Below are positions 6,538 through 36,012 of a stretch of 36,012 nucleotides of DNA, piece after piece. Position 1 is the stretch's first letter. Every line of letters begins with the position of its first letter. This DNA is from a virus (lineage: Duplodnaviria; Heunggongvirae; Uroviricota; Caudoviricetes), in IMG/VR virus record IMGVR_UViG_2654587772_000001; one strand, written 5' to 3'. Below the pieces are notes generated by a model. The model made no database searches, was not told the DNA's origin, and was given only the letters and a program-made list of their open reading frames with translations. Both the position numbers and the translations under genes were made by a program.

Positions 6538-7458
6538 ATGGGCTTGGCGATGTATAACGATCCTTATAGTGACCCAAAAGCGTGGGAATCATATTTCAAA
6601 AATATTGTTTGGCTACATTATAAGCCTGCTAACTGTTGTGACTTGCCAGATGAGCATGGAGGCGACTTTGGGCTGGAGTGTTACACTCTGAGTGGTCATG
6701 TTTTTCAGTGTTACTTGCCTGAGCAGTCGAGTGATATTGATAAGCTTTATAAAGCGCAACAAAAAAAGATTTATACTGATATAAAAAAGTTTTCTCAGGA
6801 TAACATTAAAGAATTAGAGGAGCTTTTTGGCACATTAAAAATTAGCCGCTGGATATTAGCTACACCATATAATAAATCGGCGAAATTAAGTCAATATTGC
6901 ACAAAAAAATCATTAAAAGTAAGAGAGTTAGGGATTTCTTACGTTGCTGATGATTTTCAAATAGTAGTGCAAACAGATCGAAATTATATAGAAGAAGCGT
7001 TCTTTCTTCGCAAAAATAACTATCAATTAAGCTTTAATATAAATGATGCGACGGCTGAGAATGCTGCTAACTTTATTAGTGAAAATACATCTTTTTTAGA
7101 TAAGCTAAATTTAAAATTACCTAAGATAAATGATGATGTATCTAGGCAGGGTTTATATAGAGAGTTTTTAATACAAAAATATCTTGATTATCAAAACTTG
7201 CTGGATGCTTTGAAGAGAGACTGGGTTGATATCTATGAAATTATCTATAACTGTGTTCAACATAGAGAACGTAATTTGGTAGGTCTCTTTCTTCTTACTT
7301 CATCAGATGCGAAACCATCAGATATAATGAAAGATGAAATCGCTTTGTTAAAGAAATGTATTGAAGAGGAAGTTAGTACGCTTAAACAGGCTGACTTGGA
7401 TAAGATAACATGGGGAGTTATTTCTGATTGGCTTATAAGATGCCCTTTAGATTTTTAG
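6538..7458 (+). CDS. hypothetical protein, gene 1 of the AT-rich cargo operon (candidate effector component)
   Basis: 306-aa ORF in AT-rich DNA at the tin/old position; no motif recognised by eye apart from a Cys/His-rich N-terminal patch (CCDLPDEHGGDFGLECYTLSGHVFQCY); weak RBS. Confidence 0.6.
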   Translation: MGLAMYNDPYSDPKAWESYFKNIVWLHYKPANCCDLPDEHGGDFGLECYTLSGHVFQCYLPEQSSDIDKLYKAQQKKIYTDIKKFSQDNIKELEELFGTLKISRWILATPYNKSAKLSQYCTKKSLKVRELGISYVADDFQIVVQTDRNYIEEAFFLRKNNYQLSFNINDATAENAANFISENTSFLDKLNLKLPKINDDVSRQGLYREFLIQKYLDYQNLLDALKRDWVDIYEIIYNCVQHRERNLVGLFLLTSSDAKPSDIMKDEIALLKKCIEEEVSTLKQADLDKITWGVISDWLIRCPLDF

Positions 7459-13923: not shown

Positions 13924-14997
13924 ATGCGCCAGGAAACCCGCTTTAAATTTAATGCTTACCTGTCCCGTGTTGCCGAACTGAACGGCATCGACGCCGGTGA
14001 TGTGTCGAAAAAATTCACCGTTGAACCGTCGGTCACCCAGACCCTGATGAACACCATGCAGGAGTCCTCTGACTTTCTGACCCGCATCAACATTGTGCCG
14101 GTCAGCGAAATGAAAGGGGAAAAAATTGGCATCGGTGTCACCGGCTCCATCGCCAGCACCACCGACACCGCCGGTGGCACCGAGCGTCAGCCGAAGGACT
14201 TCTCGAAGTTGGCGTCAAACAAGTACGAATGCGACCAGATTAACTTCGATTTTTATATCCGCTACAAAACGCTGGACCTGTGGGCGCGTTATCAGGATTT
14301 CCAGCTCCGTGTCCGTAACGCCATTATCAAACGCCAGTCCCTTGATTTCATCATGGCCGGTTTTAACGGCGTGAGGCGTGCCGAAACCTCTGACCGCAGC
14401 AGTAACCCGATGCTGCAGGATGTGGCGGTCGGCTGGCTGCAGAAATACCGCAATGAAGCCCCGGCGCGCGTGATGAGCAAGGTTACTGACGAGGAAGGTC
14501 ACACGACCTCTGAGGTCATCCGCGTGGGTAAGGGCGGTGATTATGCCAGCCTTGATGCACTGGTGATGGATGCGACCAACAACCTGATTGAGCCGTGGTA
14601 TCAGGAAGACCCTGACCTTGTGGTGATTGTGGGACGTCAGCTACTGGCGGACAAGTATTTTCCCATCGTCAACAAGGAGCAGGACAACAGCGAAATGCTG
14701 GCCGCTGACGTCATCATCAGCCAGAAACGCATCGGCAACCTGCCAGCGGTACGCGTCCCGTACTTCCCGGCGGATGCGATGCTCATCACGAAGCTGGAAA
14801 ACCTGTCCATCTACTACATGGATGACAGCCATCGCCGCGTGATTGAGGAAAACCCGAAACTCGACCGCGTGGAGAACTACGAGTCAATGAACATTGATTA
14901 CGTGGTGGAGGACTACGCCGCCGGTTGTCTGGTGGAAAAAATTAAGGTCGGTGATTTCTCCACACCGGCTAAAGCGACCGCAGAGCCGGGAGCGTAA
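13924..14997 (+). CDS. N: major capsid protein N
   Basis: 357-aa ORF matching P2 gpN in length and sequence. Confidence 0.95.
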   Translation: MRQETRFKFNAYLSRVAELNGIDAGDVSKKFTVEPSVTQTLMNTMQESSDFLTRINIVPVSEMKGEKIGIGVTGSIASTTDTAGGTERQPKDFSKLASNKYECDQINFDFYIRYKTLDLWARYQDFQLRVRNAIIKRQSLDFIMAGFNGVRRAETSDRSSNPMLQDVAVGWLQKYRNEAPARVMSKVTDEEGHTTSEVIRVGKGGDYASLDALVMDATNNLIEPWYQEDPDLVVIVGRQLLADKYFPIVNKEQDNSEMLAADVIISQKRIGNLPAVRVPYFPADAMLITKLENLSIYYMDDSHRRVIEENPKLDRVENYESMNIDYVVEDYAAGCLVEKIKVGDFSTPAKATAEPGA

Positions 14998-19235: not shown

Positions 19236-19775
19236 GTGACATGTAAAAAGAATGAAGGTGATGTTGTAAAGAAAATTGAACTGGTGCTGAAAACAATCGC
19301 GCGGACGGATTCTTATTTAAATTCAGCCAATACTAAATCAACGATATTACTAAGCTTAGCTTCAGCTGTAATTGTTGCTATTATAGCAAATTTTGACAAA
19401 GTTATATGTCTGGTAGATGTGGATAGTGATAGGATTTTTCTCTCTCTTTTATTGATTGTAATAGTTGGGTTATTGGTGATCTCTTTGTTATTTTCTCTAA
19501 AAGGTGTTACTCCAAATATCTCTAAGAGTGATAAGGAGAATACTTTTTCATTTGTTGATATATCAAGTTATTATAGTAGTCTTGATTGCTATTCTAGTAG
19601 TTTTAAGTCAGTGAGTGATCTGGAGTTGTTGGAGCAGTTAATTGCATTGAATTATACTCTTTCCAGAGCATTAACTAGCAAATATGAGATGCAAATCATA
19701 GCCATTGACTTTATAAAAATGGCTGTTTATGTGCTTTGTTTTTTAATATATGTGGTTGCTTTATCTAATTGGTGA
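19236..19775 (+). CDS. small membrane protein with 3 predicted TM helices (candidate membrane effector, SLATT/PycTM-like)
   Basis: 179-aa ORF from GTG 19236 (no in-frame ATG until near the end); SD AGGAAGG upstream; hydrophobic stretches STILLSLASAVIVAIIANF, IFLSLLLIVIVGLLVISLLFSL, MAVYVLCFLIYVVALS; AT-rich. Confidence 0.55.
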   Translation: MTCKKNEGDVVKKIELVLKTIARTDSYLNSANTKSTILLSLASAVIVAIIANFDKVICLVDVDSDRIFLSLLLIVIVGLLVISLLFSLKGVTPNISKSDKENTFSFVDISSYYSSLDCYSSSFKSVSDLELLEQLIALNYTLSRALTSKYEMQIIAIDFIKMAVYVLCFLIYVVALSNW

Positions 19776-19785
19776 AGGTTTTTGT

Positions 19786-21138
19786 ATGTCCATAAAGAGT
19801 ATTTATTTAGTATTAGATGAAAGGCTGGAAGAGATAATTTCAAAATCAAAATCGCAATCAGTCCATGATGCTATATTTGAATCAGTGGATAATACACAGT
19901 TGGCCACGGAGAGCTTAAGTAAATCTTCTGGTTTCGTAAGAAGTTCTATTTCATTGAAAAAAGATGTAGGTGGAGCTGATGTTCAAAGTTATCAGGTGAA
20001 AGATATTGTTAGAAATAAATTTGGCAAGCACGGTCCACTCATGACAAGTTTTGGATGTCATCCGGACTTTAATAAAATGGATGATGGTGAGGTGAGAAAT
20101 GGTTATTCCATTACCATGTTTATGGATATAATCGGCTCAACTAAACTTGGGGTTGTTTTTCCACCAGAAATAGTATTTAGAATCAAAAATGATATTATAA
20201 GATGTGCGATCGAAACAGTGAATGCATTTGATGGTCACGTCCATAGAATTATGGGTGATGCAGTAATGGCATTTTTCCGAAGTAATGACCGATATAAAAA
20301 CAATAAGATCGCAGACAGTGCAATTGATGCAATAAACTGTGCCGTTGTTTTGATTGAAATGTTCAAGGGGGTTGTTATACCTAAATTGAGTGATTTGGGA
20401 GTTGACGAAAACTTAGGAATAAGAATTGGTCTTGACTATGGCCCTCACGAGGAAGTGGTGTGGTCAAAATATGGCTATATGGAAAGTCATGAAGTGACTG
20501 CGACATCTTTTTTTGTTGATGTTGCGGCAAAACTTCAGCAAAAAGCTCCTAAAAACTCAATTATGATAGGTGCAAGTTTTGTAGAGTTATTAGGCCTTGA
20601 TGATGTTCAATTAAAACATAAAATTAACAGAAACAATGGCGTAGAACACAAGGAATTGTATTTAACCCCAAATTATAAAGATGCTTCAGGCAAACCAATA
20701 AATTACAGACAATATGTATTTGATAACGAACGTTATTGTAATTTGCTGCCTATAAATGATGAGGGGGGTAAACTCATTGTAAAAGCAACGCTTAAGAAGA
20801 GTGAAAATGATGTGTCTGATGATGAGTATATTTGTTGTTCTCGAATGATAAAAAAGGGTATGGGTATCTCATTTAAAGGGTACTATTACTCACAAGAACA
20901 GTACTCTAATCCCAGGTTCAAATTTCGTGTCGAAAATACAGGTCCTGATGCAGGTAATGTTGATAATAAGGGTAATCATGAGTCATATGAGGTAGCAAGG
21001 TACACTGGCGAGCGTTATTTTGCTAAGCATTGGGAAGATTGTCATTACAAAGGACTGCATTATATGTTTGTATCTTTTTGGAATGGGGATCAATTAATAG
21101 AAAGGGAGAGGTGTTTTTCAGTTTTTATTAACGATTAA
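19786..21138 (+). CDS. class III nucleotidyl cyclase-domain protein (candidate PycC-like cyclase)
   Basis: 450 aa from ATG 19786 (SD GAAGG 8 nt upstream; track start 19750 overlaps the upstream gene); motifs SITMFMDIIGSTKL (aa 108-121), HRIMGDAVMAFF (153-164), GIRIGLDYGP (211-220), SFFVDVAAKL (241-250) resembling the FxDIxGFT / IGDxxMA / GIHxGxV / VNxAARL blocks of adenylyl/guanylyl-type cyclases. Confidence 0.7.
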   Translation: MSIKSIYLVLDERLEEIISKSKSQSVHDAIFESVDNTQLATESLSKSSGFVRSSISLKKDVGGADVQSYQVKDIVRNKFGKHGPLMTSFGCHPDFNKMDDGEVRNGYSITMFMDIIGSTKLGVVFPPEIVFRIKNDIIRCAIETVNAFDGHVHRIMGDAVMAFFRSNDRYKNNKIADSAIDAINCAVVLIEMFKGVVIPKLSDLGVDENLGIRIGLDYGPHEEVVWSKYGYMESHEVTATSFFVDVAAKLQQKAPKNSIMIGASFVELLGLDDVQLKHKINRNNGVEHKELYLTPNYKDASGKPINYRQYVFDNERYCNLLPINDEGGKLIVKATLKKSENDVSDDEYICCSRMIKKGMGISFKGYYYSQEQYSNPRFKFRVENTGPDAGNVDNKGNHESYEVARYTGERYFAKHWEDCHYKGLHYMFVSFWNGDQLIERERCFSVFIND

Positions 21139-21238
21139 ATTGTGATTTATTTGAGGGGGGGAATGTAGTCTGTTGTATCATACCTCACCAAAGCATCAAA
21201 ATTTGCCGCTAGTGTAAACTAGCGGCATCCTTCCCGTT

Positions 21239-23131: not shown

Positions 23132-23735
23132 TTCGCGCCTGCTGCCGACCGGCTCATCACCGCTTGAAGTCGCCGCCGCAAAAGCCTGTGCGGAAATTGA
23201 AAAAACGCCGGTCAGTATTCGTGAACTGTGGAACCCGGATACCTGCCAGGCAAATCTGCTGCCGTGGCTGGCGTGGTCATTTTCGGTTGACCGCTGGGAT
23301 GATAAGTGGCCGGAAGCGACAAAACGCGCTGTTATCCGCGATGCGTATTTCATTCACTGTCATAAAGGCACTATAGGTGCAATCCGGCGTGTGGTGGAGC
23401 CGCTCGGCTATCTGATTGAGGTGAGGGAGTGGTGGCAGCTCAACGAGGAGCCGGGGACGTTCCGTATCGTTGTTGGCGTGCTTGAGCAGGGTATTACCGA
23501 AGAAATGTATCAGGAGCTGGAGCGCCTCGTTGCTGATGCAAAACCGGCGAGCCGCCATCTGACGGGACTGGCTATCAGTTTAAGTACAACCGGCAACATT
23601 TTTGCCGGTGCGGGATGCTATCACGGCGACGCCCTGACGGTTTATCCCTACACCCCGGAGGCCATTATTGTCGGAGGGGATTATTTCCCGGCCTCGGCCA
23701 TTCATTTAATTGATAACCTGAGAGTAAACGCATGA
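23124..23735 (+). CDS. I: baseplate protein I
   Basis: 203-aa ORF overlapping the J stop; P2 gpI-like sequence. Confidence 0.85.
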   Translation: MSDSRLLPTGSSPLEVAAAKACAEIEKTPVSIRELWNPDTCQANLLPWLAWSFSVDRWDDKWPEATKRAVIRDAYFIHCHKGTIGAIRRVVEPLGYLIEVREWWQLNEEPGTFRIVVGVLEQGITEEMYQELERLVADAKPASRHLTGLAISLSTTGNIFAGAGCYHGDALTVYPYTPEAIIVGGDYFPASAIHLIDNLRVNA

Positions 23736-25057
23736 CAGTGAAATACTACGCCATTCTGACTAATCAGGGCGCAGCACGGCTGGCTAACGCGACGATGCTC
23801 GGCAGTAAGCTGAATCTGACGCAAATGGCCGTTGGTGATGCGAATGGTGTCTTGCCGACACCAGACCCGGCACAGACAAAACTGATTAACCAGAAACGCA
23901 TCGCGCCGCTGAATCTTCTGAGTGTTGACCCGAACAACCAGAGCCAGATTATTGCGGAGCAAATCATCCCTGAGAACGAGGGCGGATTCTGGATCCGTGA
24001 GATTGGGCTTTATGATGATGAAGGCGTACTCATTGCGGTGGCGAACTGCCCGGAAACGTACAAACCGCAGTTGCAGGAAGGCAGTGGTCGTACCCAGACT
24101 ATCCGCATGATTCTGGTTGTCACGAATACCGAAGCTATCACGCTGAAAATCGACCCGTCGGTGGTACTGGCGACCCGTAAATACGTGGATGATGAAGTCC
24201 TGGAATTAAAGCTGTATGTGGATGACCAGATGAGAAACCACATTGCCGCACAGGATCCTCATACCCAGTATGCGCAGAAACATAATCCGACATTTACCGG
24301 AGAACCAAAAGCGCCGACGCCTGCCGCAGGAAATAACACCACGCGGATTGCGACCACTGAGTTTGTTCAGGCCGCTATTACCGCTCTGATTAACGGTGCG
24401 CCAGCCACACTGGACACACTGAAAGAAATTGCCGCGGCCATTAACAATGACCCGAAATTCAGCACCACCATTAACAATGCGCTGTCAGGTAAGCAGCCAC
24501 TGGATGAGACGCTGACTCATTTGAGTGGAAAGGATGTAGCTGGTCTTCTCGCATACCTTGGTTTGGGAGAAGGTTCTGCGTTGCCTGTTGGCATACCAGT
24601 TCCTTGGCCTTCAGCTACGCCGCCAACAGGCTGGCTGAAATGCAACGGGGCTGCTTTTTCGGCTGAAGAATACCCGGAACTGGCAAAGGCTTACCCGACA
24701 AATAAATTGCCTGATTTACGTGGTGAGTTTATTCGTGGCTGGGATGACGGGCGGGGGATTGATACAGGTCGCTCTATTTTAAGTATTCAGGGGTATGCAA
24801 CGGAGGATCATGCTCATGGATTACCGTCAAGATCCACGATTGTGACTGATGCAACGATTAATTTCTATTTTGATGAAAGCTGGGTAAATAGTGGCACTGA
24901 CATTATCAAAAGAGGAAACACAAACGATGCTGGATTACCAGCACCGGATTATGGAACCTTTAAAACATATAAACAATCAGTGGCTGGTTTAGGTGCCGCA
25001 GCCTCAGAAACGCGTCCGCGTAATATTGCATTTAACTATATCGTGAGGGCAGCCTGA
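23732..25057 (+). CDS. H: tail fibre protein H (constant N-terminal part plus currently expressed variable C-terminus)
   Basis: 441-aa ORF; N-terminus MTVKYYAILTNQGAARLANA as in P2 gpH; C-terminal tail-collar/receptor-binding-like region; crossover site inside the gene. Confidence 0.85.
   Translation: MTVKYYAILTNQGAARLANATMLGSKLNLTQMAVGDANGVLPTPDPAQTKLINQKRIAPLNLLSVDPNNQSQIIAEQIIPENEGGFWIREIGLYDDEGVLIAVANCPETYKPQLQEGSGRTQTIRMILVVTNTEAITLKIDPSVVLATRKYVDDEVLELKLYVDDQMRNHIAAQDPHTQYAQKHNPTFTGEPKAPTPAAGNNTTRIATTEFVQAAITALINGAPATLDTLKEIAAAINNDPKFSTTINNALSGKQPLDETLTHLSGKDVAGLLAYLGLGEGSALPVGIPVPWPSATPPTGWLKCNGAAFSAEEYPELAKAYPTNKLPDLRGEFIRGWDDGRGIDTGRSILSIQGYATEDHAHGLPSRSTIVTDATINFYFDESWVNSGTDIIKRGNTNDAGLPAPDYGTFKTYKQSVAGLGAAASETRPRNIAFNYIVRAA
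24548..24573. repeat. invertase crossover site (hix/gix-like), left copy inside H
   Basis: The reverse complement TTCTCCCAAACCAAGGTATGCGA matches TTCTCTCAAACCAACGTTTTATGG at 26455..26480 (14/15 over the conserved core stretch); resembles hix/gix sites. Confidence 0.45.
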
Positions 25058-25659
25058 TGCATAAAGCAATATTAAATAGTGAGCTCATTGCAACAAAGGC
25101 AGGGGATGTTACCGTTTATAACTATGATGGTGAAACACGGGAATATATTTCCACTTCAAATGAATATCTTGCCGTTGGTGTCGGCATTCCGGCATGTTCC
25201 TGTTTAGATGCCCCTGGCACACATAAGGCTGGTTATGCAATCTGCCGTTCTGCAGATTTTAACTCATGGGAATATGTGCCAGACCATCGCGGTGAAACGG
25301 TCTATAGCACCGAAACAGGAGAATCAAAAGAAATCACCGCTCCGGGTGATTACCCTGAAAATACAACCACTATCGCCCCATTAACGCCATATGATAAATG
25401 GGATGGTGAGAAATGGGTGACGGATACCGAGGCACAGCATAGCGCCGCAGTAGATGCAGCAGAAGCACAGCGCCAGTCGCTGATTGATACTGCAATGGCT
25501 TCCATCAGTCTGATTCAACTGAAATTGCAGGCCGGACGTAAACTGACGCAGGCAGAAACAACCCGGCTTAACGCTGTGCTGGATTACATTGACGCGGTGA
25601 CGGCAACAGATACCAGCACCGCGCCGGATGTCATCTGGCCTGAACTGCCGGAGGCGTAG
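25057..25659 (+). CDS. G: tail fibre assembly chaperone (G / Tfa)
   Basis: 200-aa ORF with start overlapping the H stop; Tfa-like sequence with conserved C-terminal region (RLNAVLDYIDAVTATDTSTAPDVIWPELP). Confidence 0.8.
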   Translation: MHKAILNSELIATKAGDVTVYNYDGETREYISTSNEYLAVGVGIPACSCLDAPGTHKAGYAICRSADFNSWEYVPDHRGETVYSTETGESKEITAPGDYPENTTTIAPLTPYDKWDGEKWVTDTEAQHSAAVDAAEAQRQSLIDTAMASISLIQLKLQAGRKLTQAETTRLNAVLDYIDAVTATDTSTAPDVIWPELPEA

Positions 25660-26083
25660 GCCATTCAATATCTGGTGCACTGGAGGTATCAACCAGCTCC
25701 AGTGCATCCAGATAATCCAGCCACAAATTATATTGCGCCAGTTCCTCACCTTTCAGACGACCAATAGCGGCTTTACCGGGCCATTGCTTACTGTTCATGT
25801 ATTCGTTGGCCTGGTTAATTAGTAGCTGTCTTTCTGATTCAGTAATTTCAATAAGCTCTTCATGCGTGGGTGGAGGAATATCTGCCCACGCAGGCAGCCC
25901 ATCATCTCCGGCAATACGGATTTTTCCTTGTGGCGGTTCAGCCATAAACTCACTGATAATATTTTGATTTACTTCCTTAGCGTCTGATAAATCCCATCCC
26001 TCTGATTTATATTTATCAATCATATCCACAGGGAAAAAAGCATTATGCCTTGCGCTATAAACATATTCGTTCATATAAATCAC
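25631..26083 (-). CDS. alternative tail fibre assembly chaperone (inverted orientation)
   Basis: 150-aa ORF convergent with G, with related C-terminus (YNLWLDYLDALELVDTSSAPDIEWPTPP). Confidence 0.7.
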   Translation of the reverse strand: MIYMNEYVYSARHNAFFPVDMIDKYKSEGWDLSDAKEVNQNIISEFMAEPPQGKIRIAGDDGLPAWADIPPPTHEELIEITESERQLLINQANEYMNSKQWPGKAAIGRLKGEELAQYNLWLDYLDALELVDTSSAPDIEWPTPPAVQAR

Positions 26084-26094
26084 CCTGAATAAAA

Positions 26095-26463
26095 TTACTC
26101 ACCAACAGCCCACCAACTGTAATTCATCGATACCGTGTCGCTGGTTGATGACGTTCTGTAAGCAGAATTAAAGCCGGTTAACGTTGGGCCTTCTGCAGTC
26201 ATCACGAACCCTCGCCCAGCGCCTAAAGGCGCACCGCCATCACCAGAATGAGTAAGCATGGCGCAGTCCGCTTTTTTGGGGAAAGGGATGCTGAATGTAA
26301 TTCTCATTGTTTGCGTCGATAATGTCGGCGTAACCGCACCACGACCATATTGCAGGATTTTCCCGTTGGGTAATTTCATCCATCCATCACCACTGGCAAA
26401 AGAGGCCATGTCCGGTATCTGATTTTCCCCTGTCCCCACATCCCGTTTTGCCGCTTCTCTCAA
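26095..26463 (-). CDS. alternative tail fibre C-terminal segment (promoter-less and start-less; would fuse to H after inversion)
   Basis: Open frame on the minus strand running to the crossover site at about 26466 with no credible own start; Gly/Thr/Ser-rich fibre-tip-like sequence. Confidence 0.6.
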   Translation of the reverse strand: MREAAKRDVGTGENQIPDMASFASGDGWMKLPNGKILQYGRGAVTPTLSTQTMRITFSIPFPKKADCAMLTHSGDGGAPLGAGRGFVMTAEGPTLTGFNSAYRTSSTSDTVSMNYSWWAVGE

Positions 26464-26480
26464 ACCAACGTTTTATGGAA
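26455..26480. repeat. invertase crossover site (hix/gix-like), right copy
   Basis: TTCTCTCAAACCAACGTTTTATGGAA; inverted-repeat partner of 24548..24573. Confidence 0.45.
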
Positions 26481-26570
26481 TCGGTTAAATATGATGTTGA
26501 AAGAAGGGAGTGTCCTAGTATTGATTGTTAGATAAAAATGGAAAGTGCTGATTGTAACGGTATATTTTAA

Positions 26571-26598
26571 GATGGTAACACCAAATGGTGCTACCATC
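26571..26598. terminator. candidate bidirectional rho-independent terminator
   Basis: Hairpin GATGGTAACACC-AAAT-GGTGCTACCATC followed by TTTATT on the + strand and by an A/T-rich tract on the - strand; lies just downstream of the minus-strand 105-aa gene. Confidence 0.4.
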
Positions 26599-26606
26599 TT
26601 TATTAG

Positions 26607-26924
26607 TTATCTGTTCCTTCTGAGGATTCCGCTACTCCCTTGTGTTGTAGGGTTTAATTTTTTCCAATAATGATAACCTTGTGATGTAATCCTTAGAGAG
26701 GCAGTATCTACACTCCATCCATCAATACTTTCAGGAGAACCATCGAAGATTACCTTTCCTGTAAGATACCCATCGTCATGCAGAAAGGCGATATATCCAT
26801 AAACTTCTTTTAAATCACCAATTTCATTGACTAGGCGTTCCCACGCTTGAACAGTGATTCTCTCTGGATAGGCTTCGACAAAATATTTCAGTGTGGTAGT
26901 TTTTTTATTGGTATCGATGTTCAT
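26607..26924 (-). CDS. hypothetical protein (AT-rich moron between the invertible segment and the invertase)
   Basis: 105-aa ORF with ATG at 26924 and a good SD (AAGGAAA) upstream on the minus strand; AT-rich; no recognisable motif. Confidence 0.5.
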   Translation of the reverse strand: MNIDTNKKTTTLKYFVEAYPERITVQAWERLVNEIGDLKEVYGYIAFLHDDGYLTGKVIFDGSPESIDGWSVDTASLRITSQGYHYWKKLNPTTQGSSGILRRNR

Positions 26925-27122
26925 CAGATTTTCCTTTTATTGAGGTCAACCTATCTTACCATACTTATTTGTTTCACATGGGAATGCTAAGTGGGCTATG
27001 TATCCACTATCAGTAAATATTCTTATCCAGCAAGATTACTGTAACTGAGAGCTCCATAGCCTTGTCCGCTTGTACATATATAGATAATTCTGTGTCATTA
27101 TTCTGTTTTTATAGGGATTTTT

Positions 27123-27716
27123 ATGCGTATAGGTTATGTTCGTGTATCAACAAATGACCAGAACACGGAATTGCAGCGTAACGCGCTCGAGTGCGCAGGA
27201 TGTGAGCTGATTTTTGAGGATAAAATCAGCGGCACGAAGTCCGACCGACCGGGGCTGAAAAAACTGCTCAGAACATTATCAGCAGGTGACACTCTGGTAG
27301 TCTGGAAGCTGGACAGGCTGGGGCGTAGTATGCGGCATCTGGTCATTCTGGTTGAGGAACTGCGCGAACGCGGCATTAATTTTCGCAGCCTGACAGATGC
27401 TATTGATACCAGCACGCCGATGGGGCGTTTTTTCTTTCATGTGATGGGTGCCCTGGCTGAAATGGAACGAGAACTCATTGTCGAACGGACTCGGGCCGGG
27501 CTGGAAGCGGCCAGAGCCAAAGGTCGTATTGGTGGCAGACGTCCTAAACTCACCACGAGTGAGTGGGAGCAGGTCGGGCGTTTGCTGGCTGCAGGGGAGT
27601 CACGTCAACGCGTGGCACTGATTTTTGATATTGGCCTGTCCACGCTCTATAAAAAATTTCCCTCATCAGCGATAAAGAATAAATTGTGTCATCCCTTAGC
27701 CAACCGGGACAAATAG
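27123..27716 (+). CDS. serine DNA invertase (Hin/Gin/Pin/Cin family)
   Basis: 197-aa ORF; N-terminal resolvase catalytic domain with GYVRVST-DQ (Ser nucleophile), LVVWKLDRLGRS, and a C-terminal HTH; closely resembles Hin/Gin. Confidence 0.9.
   Translation: MRIGYVRVSTNDQNTELQRNALECAGCELIFEDKISGTKSDRPGLKKLLRTLSAGDTLVVWKLDRLGRSMRHLVILVEELRERGINFRSLTDAIDTSTPMGRFFFHVMGALAEMERELIVERTRAGLEAARAKGRIGGRRPKLTTSEWEQVGRLLAAGESRQRVALIFDIGLSTLYKKFPSSAIKNKLCHPLANRDK
27684..27710 (+). promoter_or_regulatory. late-promoter upstream element (candidate PF) TTGTGTCATCCCTTAGCCAACCGGGAC
   Basis: 21/27 identical to the element upstream of O (13146..13172); ends about 66 nt before the FI start; lies inside the 3' end of the invertase gene. 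Confidence 0.45.
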
Positions 27717-34650: not shown

Positions 34651-36012
34651 TCACTTACCGTGGGGGTTACGCGTGGTTTCCCCGGAGAAATTACGCATCA
34701 GCAGCGCGTAATTTAGCTCAAGATCCTGCGGCACCGGGATCCACACAGTATAACCATCGCCTGGTGCGACCGGCATAGCTTCACCTTTGGCGTTTTCCAT
34801 ATGCTCAAGGGTAAAGTTAATGTTGCCTTGCGGCGTCATCAGCTCAAGGCTGTCGCCAACGGAGAATTTATTTTTCACCGCTACCGCCGCGAGGTCGCCC
34901 TTGCGCTCACCGGTAAACTCACCAACAAACTGCTGGCGGTCAGAAACTGAATAACCGTATTCGTAGTTCTGATAATCGTCGTGAGTATGACGACGCAGGA
35001 AACCTTCGGTATAGCCACGATGCGCCAGACCTTCCAGAGTTTCCAGCAGGCTGGTATCGAATGGTTTTCCCGCAGCTGCGTCATCGATAGCTTTACGGTA
35101 AACCTGCGCGGTGCGTGCGCAATAGTAGAAAGATTTGGTACGGCCTTCGATTTTCAGCGAATGCACTCCCATTTTGGTCAGGCGTTCTACATGGGCGATG
35201 GCGCGCAGATCTTTCGAGTTCATGATGTAAGTGCCGTGCTCATCTTCAAACGCGGTCATATACTCGCCCGGACGCTGGGCCTCTTCGATCATAAACACTT
35301 TGTCGGTTGGTGCGCCGATACCCAGCGTCGGCTCAACATTTTGCACCGGAATCGGCTCGTACTTGTGTACGATGTTGCCAACGTCATCTTCTTTCCCTTC
35401 CTGGACGTTGTACTCCCAGCGGCAGGCGTTGGTGCAGGTGCCCTGGTTCGGGTCGCGCTTGTTGATATAGCCAGAGAGCAGGCAGCGACCGGAGTAGGCC
35501 ATGCACAGAGCGCCGTGAACGAAGATTTCGATCTCCATATTTGGCACCTGATTGCGGATCTCTTCAATCTCTTCCAGCGACAGCTCGCGAGAGAGGATCA
35601 CGCGGGTCAGGCCCATTTGCTGCCAGAATTTCACCGTCGCCCAGTTCACGGCGTTAGCCTGTACCGAGAGATGGATCGGCATTTCAGGGAAGTGCTCACG
35701 CACCAGCATAATCAGCCCTGGATCGGACATAATCAGCGCATCCGGCCCCATTTCCACCACCGGTTTCAGGTCACGGATAAAGGTTTTCAGCTTGGCGTTG
35801 TGCGGTGCAATGTTGACCACTACATAAAACTTTTTCCCCAGCGCGTGGGCTTCATTGATGCCGAGCTGAAGATTTTCGTGGTTGAATTCGTTGTTGCGCA
35901 CACGCAGGGAGTAACGCGGCTGGCCCGCATAAACAGCATCTGCGCCATAAGCGAAAGCGTAACGCATATTTTTCAGCGTTCCCGCCGGGGAAAGGAGTTC
36001 CGGTTTAAACAT
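34651..36012 (-). CDS. yegQ: U32-family peptidase-like protein YegQ/RlhA (23S rRNA hydroxylation factor), host flank
   Basis: 453-aa ORF (MFKPELLSPAGTLKNMRYAFAYGADAVYAGQPRYSL...) matching the remembered E. coli YegQ; start codon at the window edge. Confidence 0.85.
   Translation of the reverse strand: MFKPELLSPAGTLKNMRYAFAYGADAVYAGQPRYSLRVRNNEFNHENLQLGINEAHALGKKFYVVVNIAPHNAKLKTFIRDLKPVVEMGPDALIMSDPGLIMLVREHFPEMPIHLSVQANAVNWATVKFWQQMGLTRVILSRELSLEEIEEIRNQVPNMEIEIFVHGALCMAYSGRCLLSGYINKRDPNQGTCTNACRWEYNVQEGKEDDVGNIVHKYEPIPVQNVEPTLGIGAPTDKVFMIEEAQRPGEYMTAFEDEHGTYIMNSKDLRAIAHVERLTKMGVHSLKIEGRTKSFYYCARTAQVYRKAIDDAAAGKPFDTSLLETLEGLAHRGYTEGFLRRHTHDDYQNYEYGYSVSDRQQFVGEFTGERKGDLAAVAVKNKFSVGDSLELMTPQGNINFTLEHMENAKGEAMPVAPGDGYTVWIPVPQDLELNYALLMRNFSGETTRNPHGK

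Follow-up and report, generated by a model that had tools for sequence, protein, structure and literature searches.

The DNA stretch analyzed here (the window; 36,012 nt, IMG/VR virus record IMGVR_UViG_2654587772_000001) comes from E. coli ST2747 and contains a whole P2-like element, reaching from ogr to int and integrated between yegQ and yegR, which form the flanks (1-1362 and 35696-36012). By annotation the prophage looks complete, with genes for terminase, portal, capsid, tail, lysis, and integrase. The subject of this analysis is its tail-fibre locus, at which the end of fibre gene H and the adjacent chaperone gene lie on an invertible segment that is followed by a gene for a DNA invertase. 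The neighbourhood is that of the P2 late region, with the gene order V-W-J-I-H-G ... FI-FII. The features that make up the locus are the following:

23732-25057, plus strand: open reading frame (ORF) of H, 441 aa, with the P2-type N-terminal fibre domain and, beyond site L, a Collar domain
23732..24559, plus strand: Hc, the constant part of H, whose DNA is shared by both states as far as the core TT (24558-24559)
24546-24571, plus strand: left crossover site L (pix/gix-like), TTCTCGCATACC TT GGTTTGGGAGAA, within the H reading frame
24560..26466, no strand: invertible segment, 1,907 bp between the two core dinucleotides
24560..25057, plus strand: variable tip Hv of the StfE type, joined to Hc in the window orientation; Pfam Collar at residues 287-334
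25057..25659, plus strand: chaperone G of the TfaE type, for Hv; Caudo_TAP, E 3.5e-33; named tfaE by the Prokaryotic Genome Annotation Pipeline (PGAP)
25631..26074, minus strand: alternative chaperone, 147 aa from an ATG, ORF extendable to a GTG at 26083; Caudo_TAP, E 2e-31, phrog_188
26095..26466, minus strand: alternative tip Hv'; Pfam Gp53-like_C, E 7.5e-13; runs into site R
26455-26480, minus strand: right crossover site R; the minus strand reads TTCCATAAAACG TT GGTTTGAGAGAA
27123..27716, plus strand: serine DNA invertase of the Pin/Gin/Cin/Hin group, 197 aa; Resolvase and HTH_7 domains; phrog_125 DNA invertase, E 2e-100

The N-terminal part of H is of the P2 type. Residues 1-150 matched the Pfam domain Phage_tail_fib (E 1.5e-62), and residues 1-269 were 98.9% identical to H of the isolated P2-like phage pro483. 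The segment itself holds two cassettes, which are convergent and lie on opposite strands. In each, a fibre tip is followed by its own Caudo_TAP chaperone, and the two chaperone genes overlap by 29 bp at their 3' ends. The two tips belong to different families, the Collar/StfE type and the gp53-like C type. A preliminary description of this DNA, made from the sequence alone, had already placed the variable 3' part of H and G on the plus strand of a 1.9-kb segment, and the ORFs and their Pfam identities were found as it had stated. The same is true for the start-less fibre C-terminus on the minus strand, which carries Gp53-like_C and has neither a start codon nor a promoter of its own. The alternative chaperone that it had proposed is also present on the minus strand, with a Caudo_TAP match, but the start is probably the ATG at 26074, as in the PGAP annotation, and not position 26083.

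The consequences of an inversion were analyzed in silico. Exchange at the central TT fused the first 278 residues of H in frame to the gp53-like tip and yielded a fibre protein of 399 aa (H'), in which Hv' makes up residues 279-399 and after which the alternative chaperone starts at a distance of 20 nt. Site L is thus located inside the fibre ORF in such a way that the constant N-terminus fuses in frame to either tip (441-aa H or 399-aa H'), as the preliminary description had anticipated, and the protein is common to both states through residue 278. The matches of pro483 and of Citrobacter phage Omnitron to the window start at 24558 and end at 26471-26483.

The two crossover sites were characterized next to the genes that they flank. 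An inverted repeat around the segment had been described before; its right arm (26455..26480) was exact, whereas the left arm (24548..24573) was 2 nt out of register and is located at 24546-24571. Both sites are 26 bp long and are imperfect palindromes, in which two 12-bp half-sites (consensus TTCTCNNAAACC) flank a central TT. They lie in inverted orientation, have the identical central dinucleotide, and agree at 19 of the 26 positions, and at 14 of 15 across the core and the inner arm. They represent a short pair of the hix/gix kind without a long perfect repeat. A seed-based repeat finder did not report the L/R repeat because the identical run comprises only 8 + 6 bases around one mismatch, and the pair was recognised on direct reading of the sequence. 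The 14-mer TTGGTTTGRGAGAA was found at two places in the 36 kb, L and R only, with 0.49 matches expected at up to 2 mismatches. This test is weak by itself (8 of 100 shuffles gave 2 matches when 2 mismatches were permitted), and it was therefore replaced by a two-arm half-site scan with positive controls. The scan used TTCTCNNAAACC, required both half-sites, and scored 20 specified positions, with a threshold of at least 16/20. It returned 2 sites in the 36 kb, L and R, versus 0.01 expected from first-order Markov resampling, and L and R were still the only sites in the window after relaxation to at least 15/20. In Mu and P7, the scan returned only the annotated gix and cix segment boundaries, and the annotated crossover dinucleotide of P7 fell at scan positions 13-14. 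In e14 and pro483, one site pair each was found at the expected positions, which are unannotated in those records. Site L is identical to the left site of pro483, and partial matches in other E. coli genomes stop exactly at both edges of site R. A multi-site, shufflon-like arrangement, as in one P2-like prophage of enteropathogenic E. coli (EPEC), was also considered and was rejected, as only two sites were present at 15/20 or above.

Both orientations of the segment were found in deposited genomes. The left junction as it stands in the window matched NZ_CP007394.1 (E. coli ST2747) at 100%, and the left junction generated by in silico inversion matched NZ_CP007393.1, also E. coli ST2747, at 100%. 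Over 10,400 bp, the window was the same as CP007394 and the in silico inverted window was the same as CP007393, with 0 mismatches in both cases. The preliminary description had proposed to look for the second orientation in sequencing reads; here a sister assembly took the place of reads, and CP007393 proved to be exactly inverted. All differences between CP007393 and CP007394 in the 10,400 bp are inside 24566-26460, which confines the crossover to 24558-24565 (TTGGTTTG, core TT included). Apart from the inversion, the only difference between the two genomes in the full 36,012 bp was an A6/A7 homopolymer indel (at about 14942). The three ST2747 genomes are those of a stool isolate and of two nitrofurantoin-resistant derivatives, which were obtained by three stepwise in vitro platings (PMC3983296). 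The pair thus represents one laboratory lineage, so that the segment was inverted, or both forms coexisted, within that lineage. The inversion occurred exactly at sites L and R within one strain lineage.

The two states are not restricted to ST2747. The left junction was found as in the window in 518 genomes and in the inverted form in 94. For site R, the count comprised genomes that contain a 633-bp insertion between site R and the invertase (see below) and in which the right junction was matched at a coverage of at least 80%; 8 had the window arrangement and 5 the inverted one. Close poultry isolates carry the prophage at the same chromosomal coordinate with the segment in opposite orientations, and the orientation is their sole difference. 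The isolated phage pro483 was deposited in the H' state, with a 399-aa fibre and a short chaperone in the expressed position.

Three side observations concern these genomes. The A6/A7 homopolymer (about 14936-14942) lies in a capsid gene that is annotated as frameshifted in CP007393, and the difference is probably a long-read consensus error. In NZ_CP007393.1, PGAP splits the intact 399-aa H' into a pseudogene ("phage tail protein, missing C-terminus") and a gp53-like fragment, an artefact that arises in the annotation of the rarer orientation. The inverted left junction (Hc plus gp53-like tip) also occurs, at 99% identity, in E. coli TUM11352 on a plasmid of 88 kb (NZ_CP134387.1, 20455-20853), which is possibly a phage-plasmid; the chromosome of this strain carries the other left junction at 96.5%.

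The gene beside site R had been assigned to the Hin/Gin family, and this assignment was borne out by the Resolvase and HTH_7 domains, by the PHROG annotation as DNA invertase, and by identities of 86% to PinE of e14 and 76% to Gin of Mu. Among structures in the Protein Data Bank, Gin (3uj3) was matched with an E value of 3.7e-93 and gamma-delta resolvase with 7.5e-32. The protein is a small recombinase of the serine type, with the catalytic domain at the N-terminus and a helix-turn-helix at the C-terminus, and it keeps the catalytic Ser9 in the motif YVRVS9T. Residues K46/K47/R50 and Q150/R153/L154 (Gin numbering, which is Hin minus 1) are also kept. They correspond to residues that are unique to invertases that depend on Fis and an enhancer, namely, basic residues of helix B (Hin 47/48/51) and Q151/R154/L155 in helix 1 of the DNA-binding domain of Hin (McLean et al. 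2013, PMC3798978). In addition, one stretch within the gene resembles a known enhancer:

27141..27208, plus strand: enhancer-homologous stretch, 55 of 68 positions (81%) identical to the annotated putative P7 cin enhancer

The P7 record places the cin enhancer at nt 19-86 of the gene. Of two candidate Fis 15-mers (27144-27158 and 27193-27207), one is identical to P7 and the other agrees at 14 of 15 positions. By analogy with P7, the stretch may function as an enhancer. The last codons of the invertase gene (about 27690-27716), which encode a C-terminal extension compared to PinE and Gin, enter the homology to the P2 pF activator site, and its stop codon falls within the promoter region of the FI operon in the backbone. 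The P2 backbone homology restarts at about 27697, within these final codons, at the pF activator site.

Taken together, we conclude with high confidence that the locus is an active tail-fibre switch with two states, related in type to Mu G, P1 C, and e14 P and with a presumed effect on host range, which is carried by the P2-like prophage as an accessory module. The Mu G / P1 C-type architecture that had been proposed was recovered in all parts: the constant part of the fibre gene lies outside the segment, the site is in the ORF, the cassettes are convergent, and the invertase gene is located just outside. The accessory nature was also confirmed. In canonical P2, H and G are followed by a terminator, fun(Z) on the minus strand, and FI, and an invertase gene is absent from this region; the switch module is thus an addition, at the fun(Z) position.

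The mechanism can be envisaged by analogy to Hin, Gin, and Cin. The invertase would bind as dimers to the two inverted 26-bp sites, and the dimers would be assembled on a Fis-bound enhancer in the 5' part of the invertase gene. Both sites would be cut at the central TT, one half of the tetramer would rotate by 180 degrees, and religation would flip the 1,907 bp. In the window orientation, the late operon reads Hc-Hv (StfE type)-G (TfaE type), with the tip at 24560-25057 in the expressed position, in agreement with the preliminary description, which had named the variant at 24574..25057. In the inverted orientation, it would read Hc-Hv' (gp53-like, 399-aa H'), followed by the 147-aa chaperone that belongs to this tip. 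The cassette that is not joined to Hc would be silent because it lacks a start codon or promoter. As a result, a lysogen population might release two kinds of virions with different receptor-binding tips.

Several observations weigh against an active switch that is driven by its own invertase. The two orientations are known from two assemblies and not from one culture, and the parental genome CP007392 appeared in neither junction search, apparently because it lies outside the genome collection. The enhancer-homologous stretch is 673 bp away from site R, a longer distance than in P7 (about 480 bp) and in Mu, e14, and pro483 (about 86 bp). Within this stretch, the best Fis-like 15-mers with terminal G and C are spaced by 49 nt instead of the canonical 48 nt, and a scan with the Fis consensus did not yield a clean 48-bp pair. 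This DNA also codes for the catalytic motif, where the protein is most conserved, and the conservation of the stretch is thus not independent evidence. A scan for σ70 promoters upstream of the invertase and of a 105-aa ORF in the insertion revealed nothing beyond chance. Lastly, the ST2747 chromosome has a second invertase-like locus, and therefore, the adjacent gene need not be the acting enzyme.

This last point leads to an alternative, according to which the switch is real, but a different Pin-family enzyme of the host (of e14, Qin, or another prophage) catalyzes the inversion in trans, so that the adjacent gene might be dispensable or inactive. Apart from the second match on the ST2747 chromosome, relatives of the invertase gene are present in 4,713 of 5,426 complete E. 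coli genomes (median number, 2), and the native upstream region of the gene has been replaced by the insertion, in which no clear promoter was found. Moreover, Pin-family enzymes can act on each other's sites, since the P segment of e14 is inverted by PinQ, which belongs to another prophage, Qin (PMC12529663). However, the adjacent ORF is intact and all catalytic and Fis-contact residues are present, it is 95.5% identical in DNA to the invertase gene of the isolated phage pro483, and an invertase gene adjoins such segments in the relatives examined. We therefore regard catalysis in trans as unlikely, and the adjacent invertase as the probable catalyst of the observed event.

It is also conceivable that the module has been co-opted for the benefit of the host. 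In one orientation, a fibre-derived protein with an StfE-type tip would block the receptors of other phages, as is reported for StfE2 of e14 against T2, and the switch would serve defence and not the host range of the prophage. In the study of PinQ, a StfP-StfE fusion was reported to block the adsorption of T2 (PMC12529663). The tip in the expressed position of the window shares 98.2% identity with the variable part of StfE of e14, and the same prophage carries a Pycsar defence system. On the other side stand the apparent completeness of the prophage in its annotation and the constant part of the fibre, which is that of a P2-type H and not that of StfP of e14. In addition, H belongs to the Ogr-dependent late operon, and P2 lysogens do not express this operon. 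A defence function is thus very improbable, and a host-range switch of the prophage remains the preferred interpretation. That the difference in orientation is an assembly artefact, or arose by RecA-dependent homologous recombination between the repeats without site-specific inversion, is hardly credible. Both genomes are early PacBio assemblies (hierarchical genome-assembly process, HGAP; about 28-fold coverage, scaffolded with an optical map) that hold homopolymer errors. However, identity between the repeats extends over only 14-15 contiguous bases, a length that does not mislead long reads and that falls short of what RecA recombination usually requires. The breakpoints map to an 8-bp interval with the central dinucleotide of a canonical 26-bp site, and both states recur in independent natural isolates and in phage pro483.

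The sole unusual feature of the locus is the insertion of 633 bp (26481-27113) between site R and the invertase gene, which is present in 23 complete genomes and absent from pro483, and which replaced the native upstream region of the invertase gene. The preliminary description had not mentioned this insertion or its ORF. It contains two further features:

26607..26924, minus strand: 105-aa orphan ORF inside the 633-bp insertion, back to back with the invertase
26569..26600, no strand: hairpin with a 15-bp stem, just outside the invertible segment; RNA fold of -17.7 kcal/mol (plus strand) and -22.5 (minus strand)

Family searches with the 105-aa ORF gave no assignment. The ORF is rare: 5.8 billion proteins yielded 5 clusters, and a profile search of 1.84 billion representatives gave 14 hits. 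Its predicted fold is a winged helix. Its relatives in Citrobacter are located at the ends of fibre modules with a lone crossover-like site and without an invertase, which indicates that the ORF travels with the ends of fibre modules and not with the switch. On these grounds, the ORF was rejected as a part of the switch. It is quite doubtful that the 105-aa protein controls transcription of the invertase gene or binds near site R; if it did, fibre switching in this lineage would be conditionally regulated and not purely stochastic. A metagenomic protein of 95 aa (P0008) joins residues 8-61 of the invertase, at a common "WK", to the middle part of a relative of the 105-aa ORF. This chimera is probably an assembly or recombination artefact, and it ties both gene families together in another sample. 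Judged from its position and predicted fold, the hairpin is probably a terminator, for the V-to-G late operon in either orientation and for the 105-aa ORF on the other strand; the equivalent place in P2 holds the annotated terminator of the V operon.

Fibre switches of this kind, such as the G segment of Mu, the C segment of P1, and the P segment of e14, have been known since the 1980s. The P segment and PinE of e14, a cryptic prophage of E. coli K-12, were reportedly described by Plasterk and van de Putte in 1985. The e14 system is very similar to the locus in the window. The crossover sites are nearly the same (CTCTCGAAAACC TT GGTTTGGGAGAA and TTTTCATAAACG TT GGTTTGGGAGAA in e14), the half with Hv and G shares 94.6% nucleotide identity with stfE-tfaE, G is 97.5% identical to TfaE, and H residues 277-441 are 98.2% identical to the variable part of StfE. 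The convergent chaperone genes have a 29-bp overlap in both. In contrast, the carrier of the e14 system is a defective lambdoid element, whereas here it is an apparently complete P2-like prophage with a P2-type H as the constant part. Furthermore, the second cassette in the window has a gp53-like tip and a chaperone that is just 54% identical to TfaP, and the 633-bp insertion separates site R from the invertase.

The logic of the Mu G segment (Sc/Sv/U versus S'v/U') is the same, as is the position of the invertase gene outside the segment beside the right site, and the 26-bp sites share the half-site consensus. However, the Mu segment is about 3 kb long, its core dinucleotide is TC, and its tips show no sequence relationship to those in the window (no hit in tblastn). 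The C segment of P1 and P7 with Cin has the same architecture and a central TT that is annotated as the crossover point, and part of the constant region of H resembles S of P7 (61-84% over 31-82 aa). The differences are the length of the C segment (about 4 kb), the location of cin, which is on the opposite side with respect to the fibre gene, and an identity of the invertase DNA of only about 70%.

Invertible fibre loci are also known from P2-like elements, namely, prophages of EPEC E2348/69, phage pro483, and Fels-2. They belong to the same phage family, and their module likewise sits between G and FI. Pro483 has the invertase gene with 95.5% identity noted above and the H' state expressed, but it is without the 633-bp insertion, and its other tip is about 57% identical. 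The window has only two sites, whereas three repeats and four variants are present at one of the EPEC loci. For the P2-like prophages of EPEC E2348/69, inversion of the fibre segment was shown by sequencing, the variants coexist, and PCR confirmation is quoted only for e14 (Goldberg et al. 2014, PMC4272514). Inversion at P2-like fibre loci has thus already been demonstrated, and the locus analyzed here is a further example of a well-known kind, which leaves the current understanding of the mechanism unchanged.

The locus is of value as a clean case from nature in which a Pin-family fibre switch flipped within few laboratory passages in a clinical E. coli lineage. Differences of this type between isogenic genomes are programmed inversions and not mutations tied to the selected phenotype, which was nitrofurantoin resistance in this case. 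The splitting of H' by PGAP shows that both orientations should be considered in the annotation of such loci. P2-like prophages with such modules would release mixed virions, which is relevant for the prediction of host range and for the engineering of phages and tailocins.

Lone sites were observed in several relatives. H of canonical P2 contains a single gix-like site, TTATCGAATATC TC GGTTTACAGGAA (2358-2383 of the P2 stretch examined), the right half of which equals that of Mu gix; by its sequence, it looks like the relic of a lost switch. Three Citrobacter prophages have also kept a lone site in the fibre gene (6937-6962 of their stretches). Finally, the Pycsar anti-phage system of the prophage in the window, which consists of a protein with an adenylate/guanylate cyclase domain and a Pycsar effector, is located at about 19360-21140, just upstream of baseplate gene V, and represents a second accessory cargo of this P2-like prophage.

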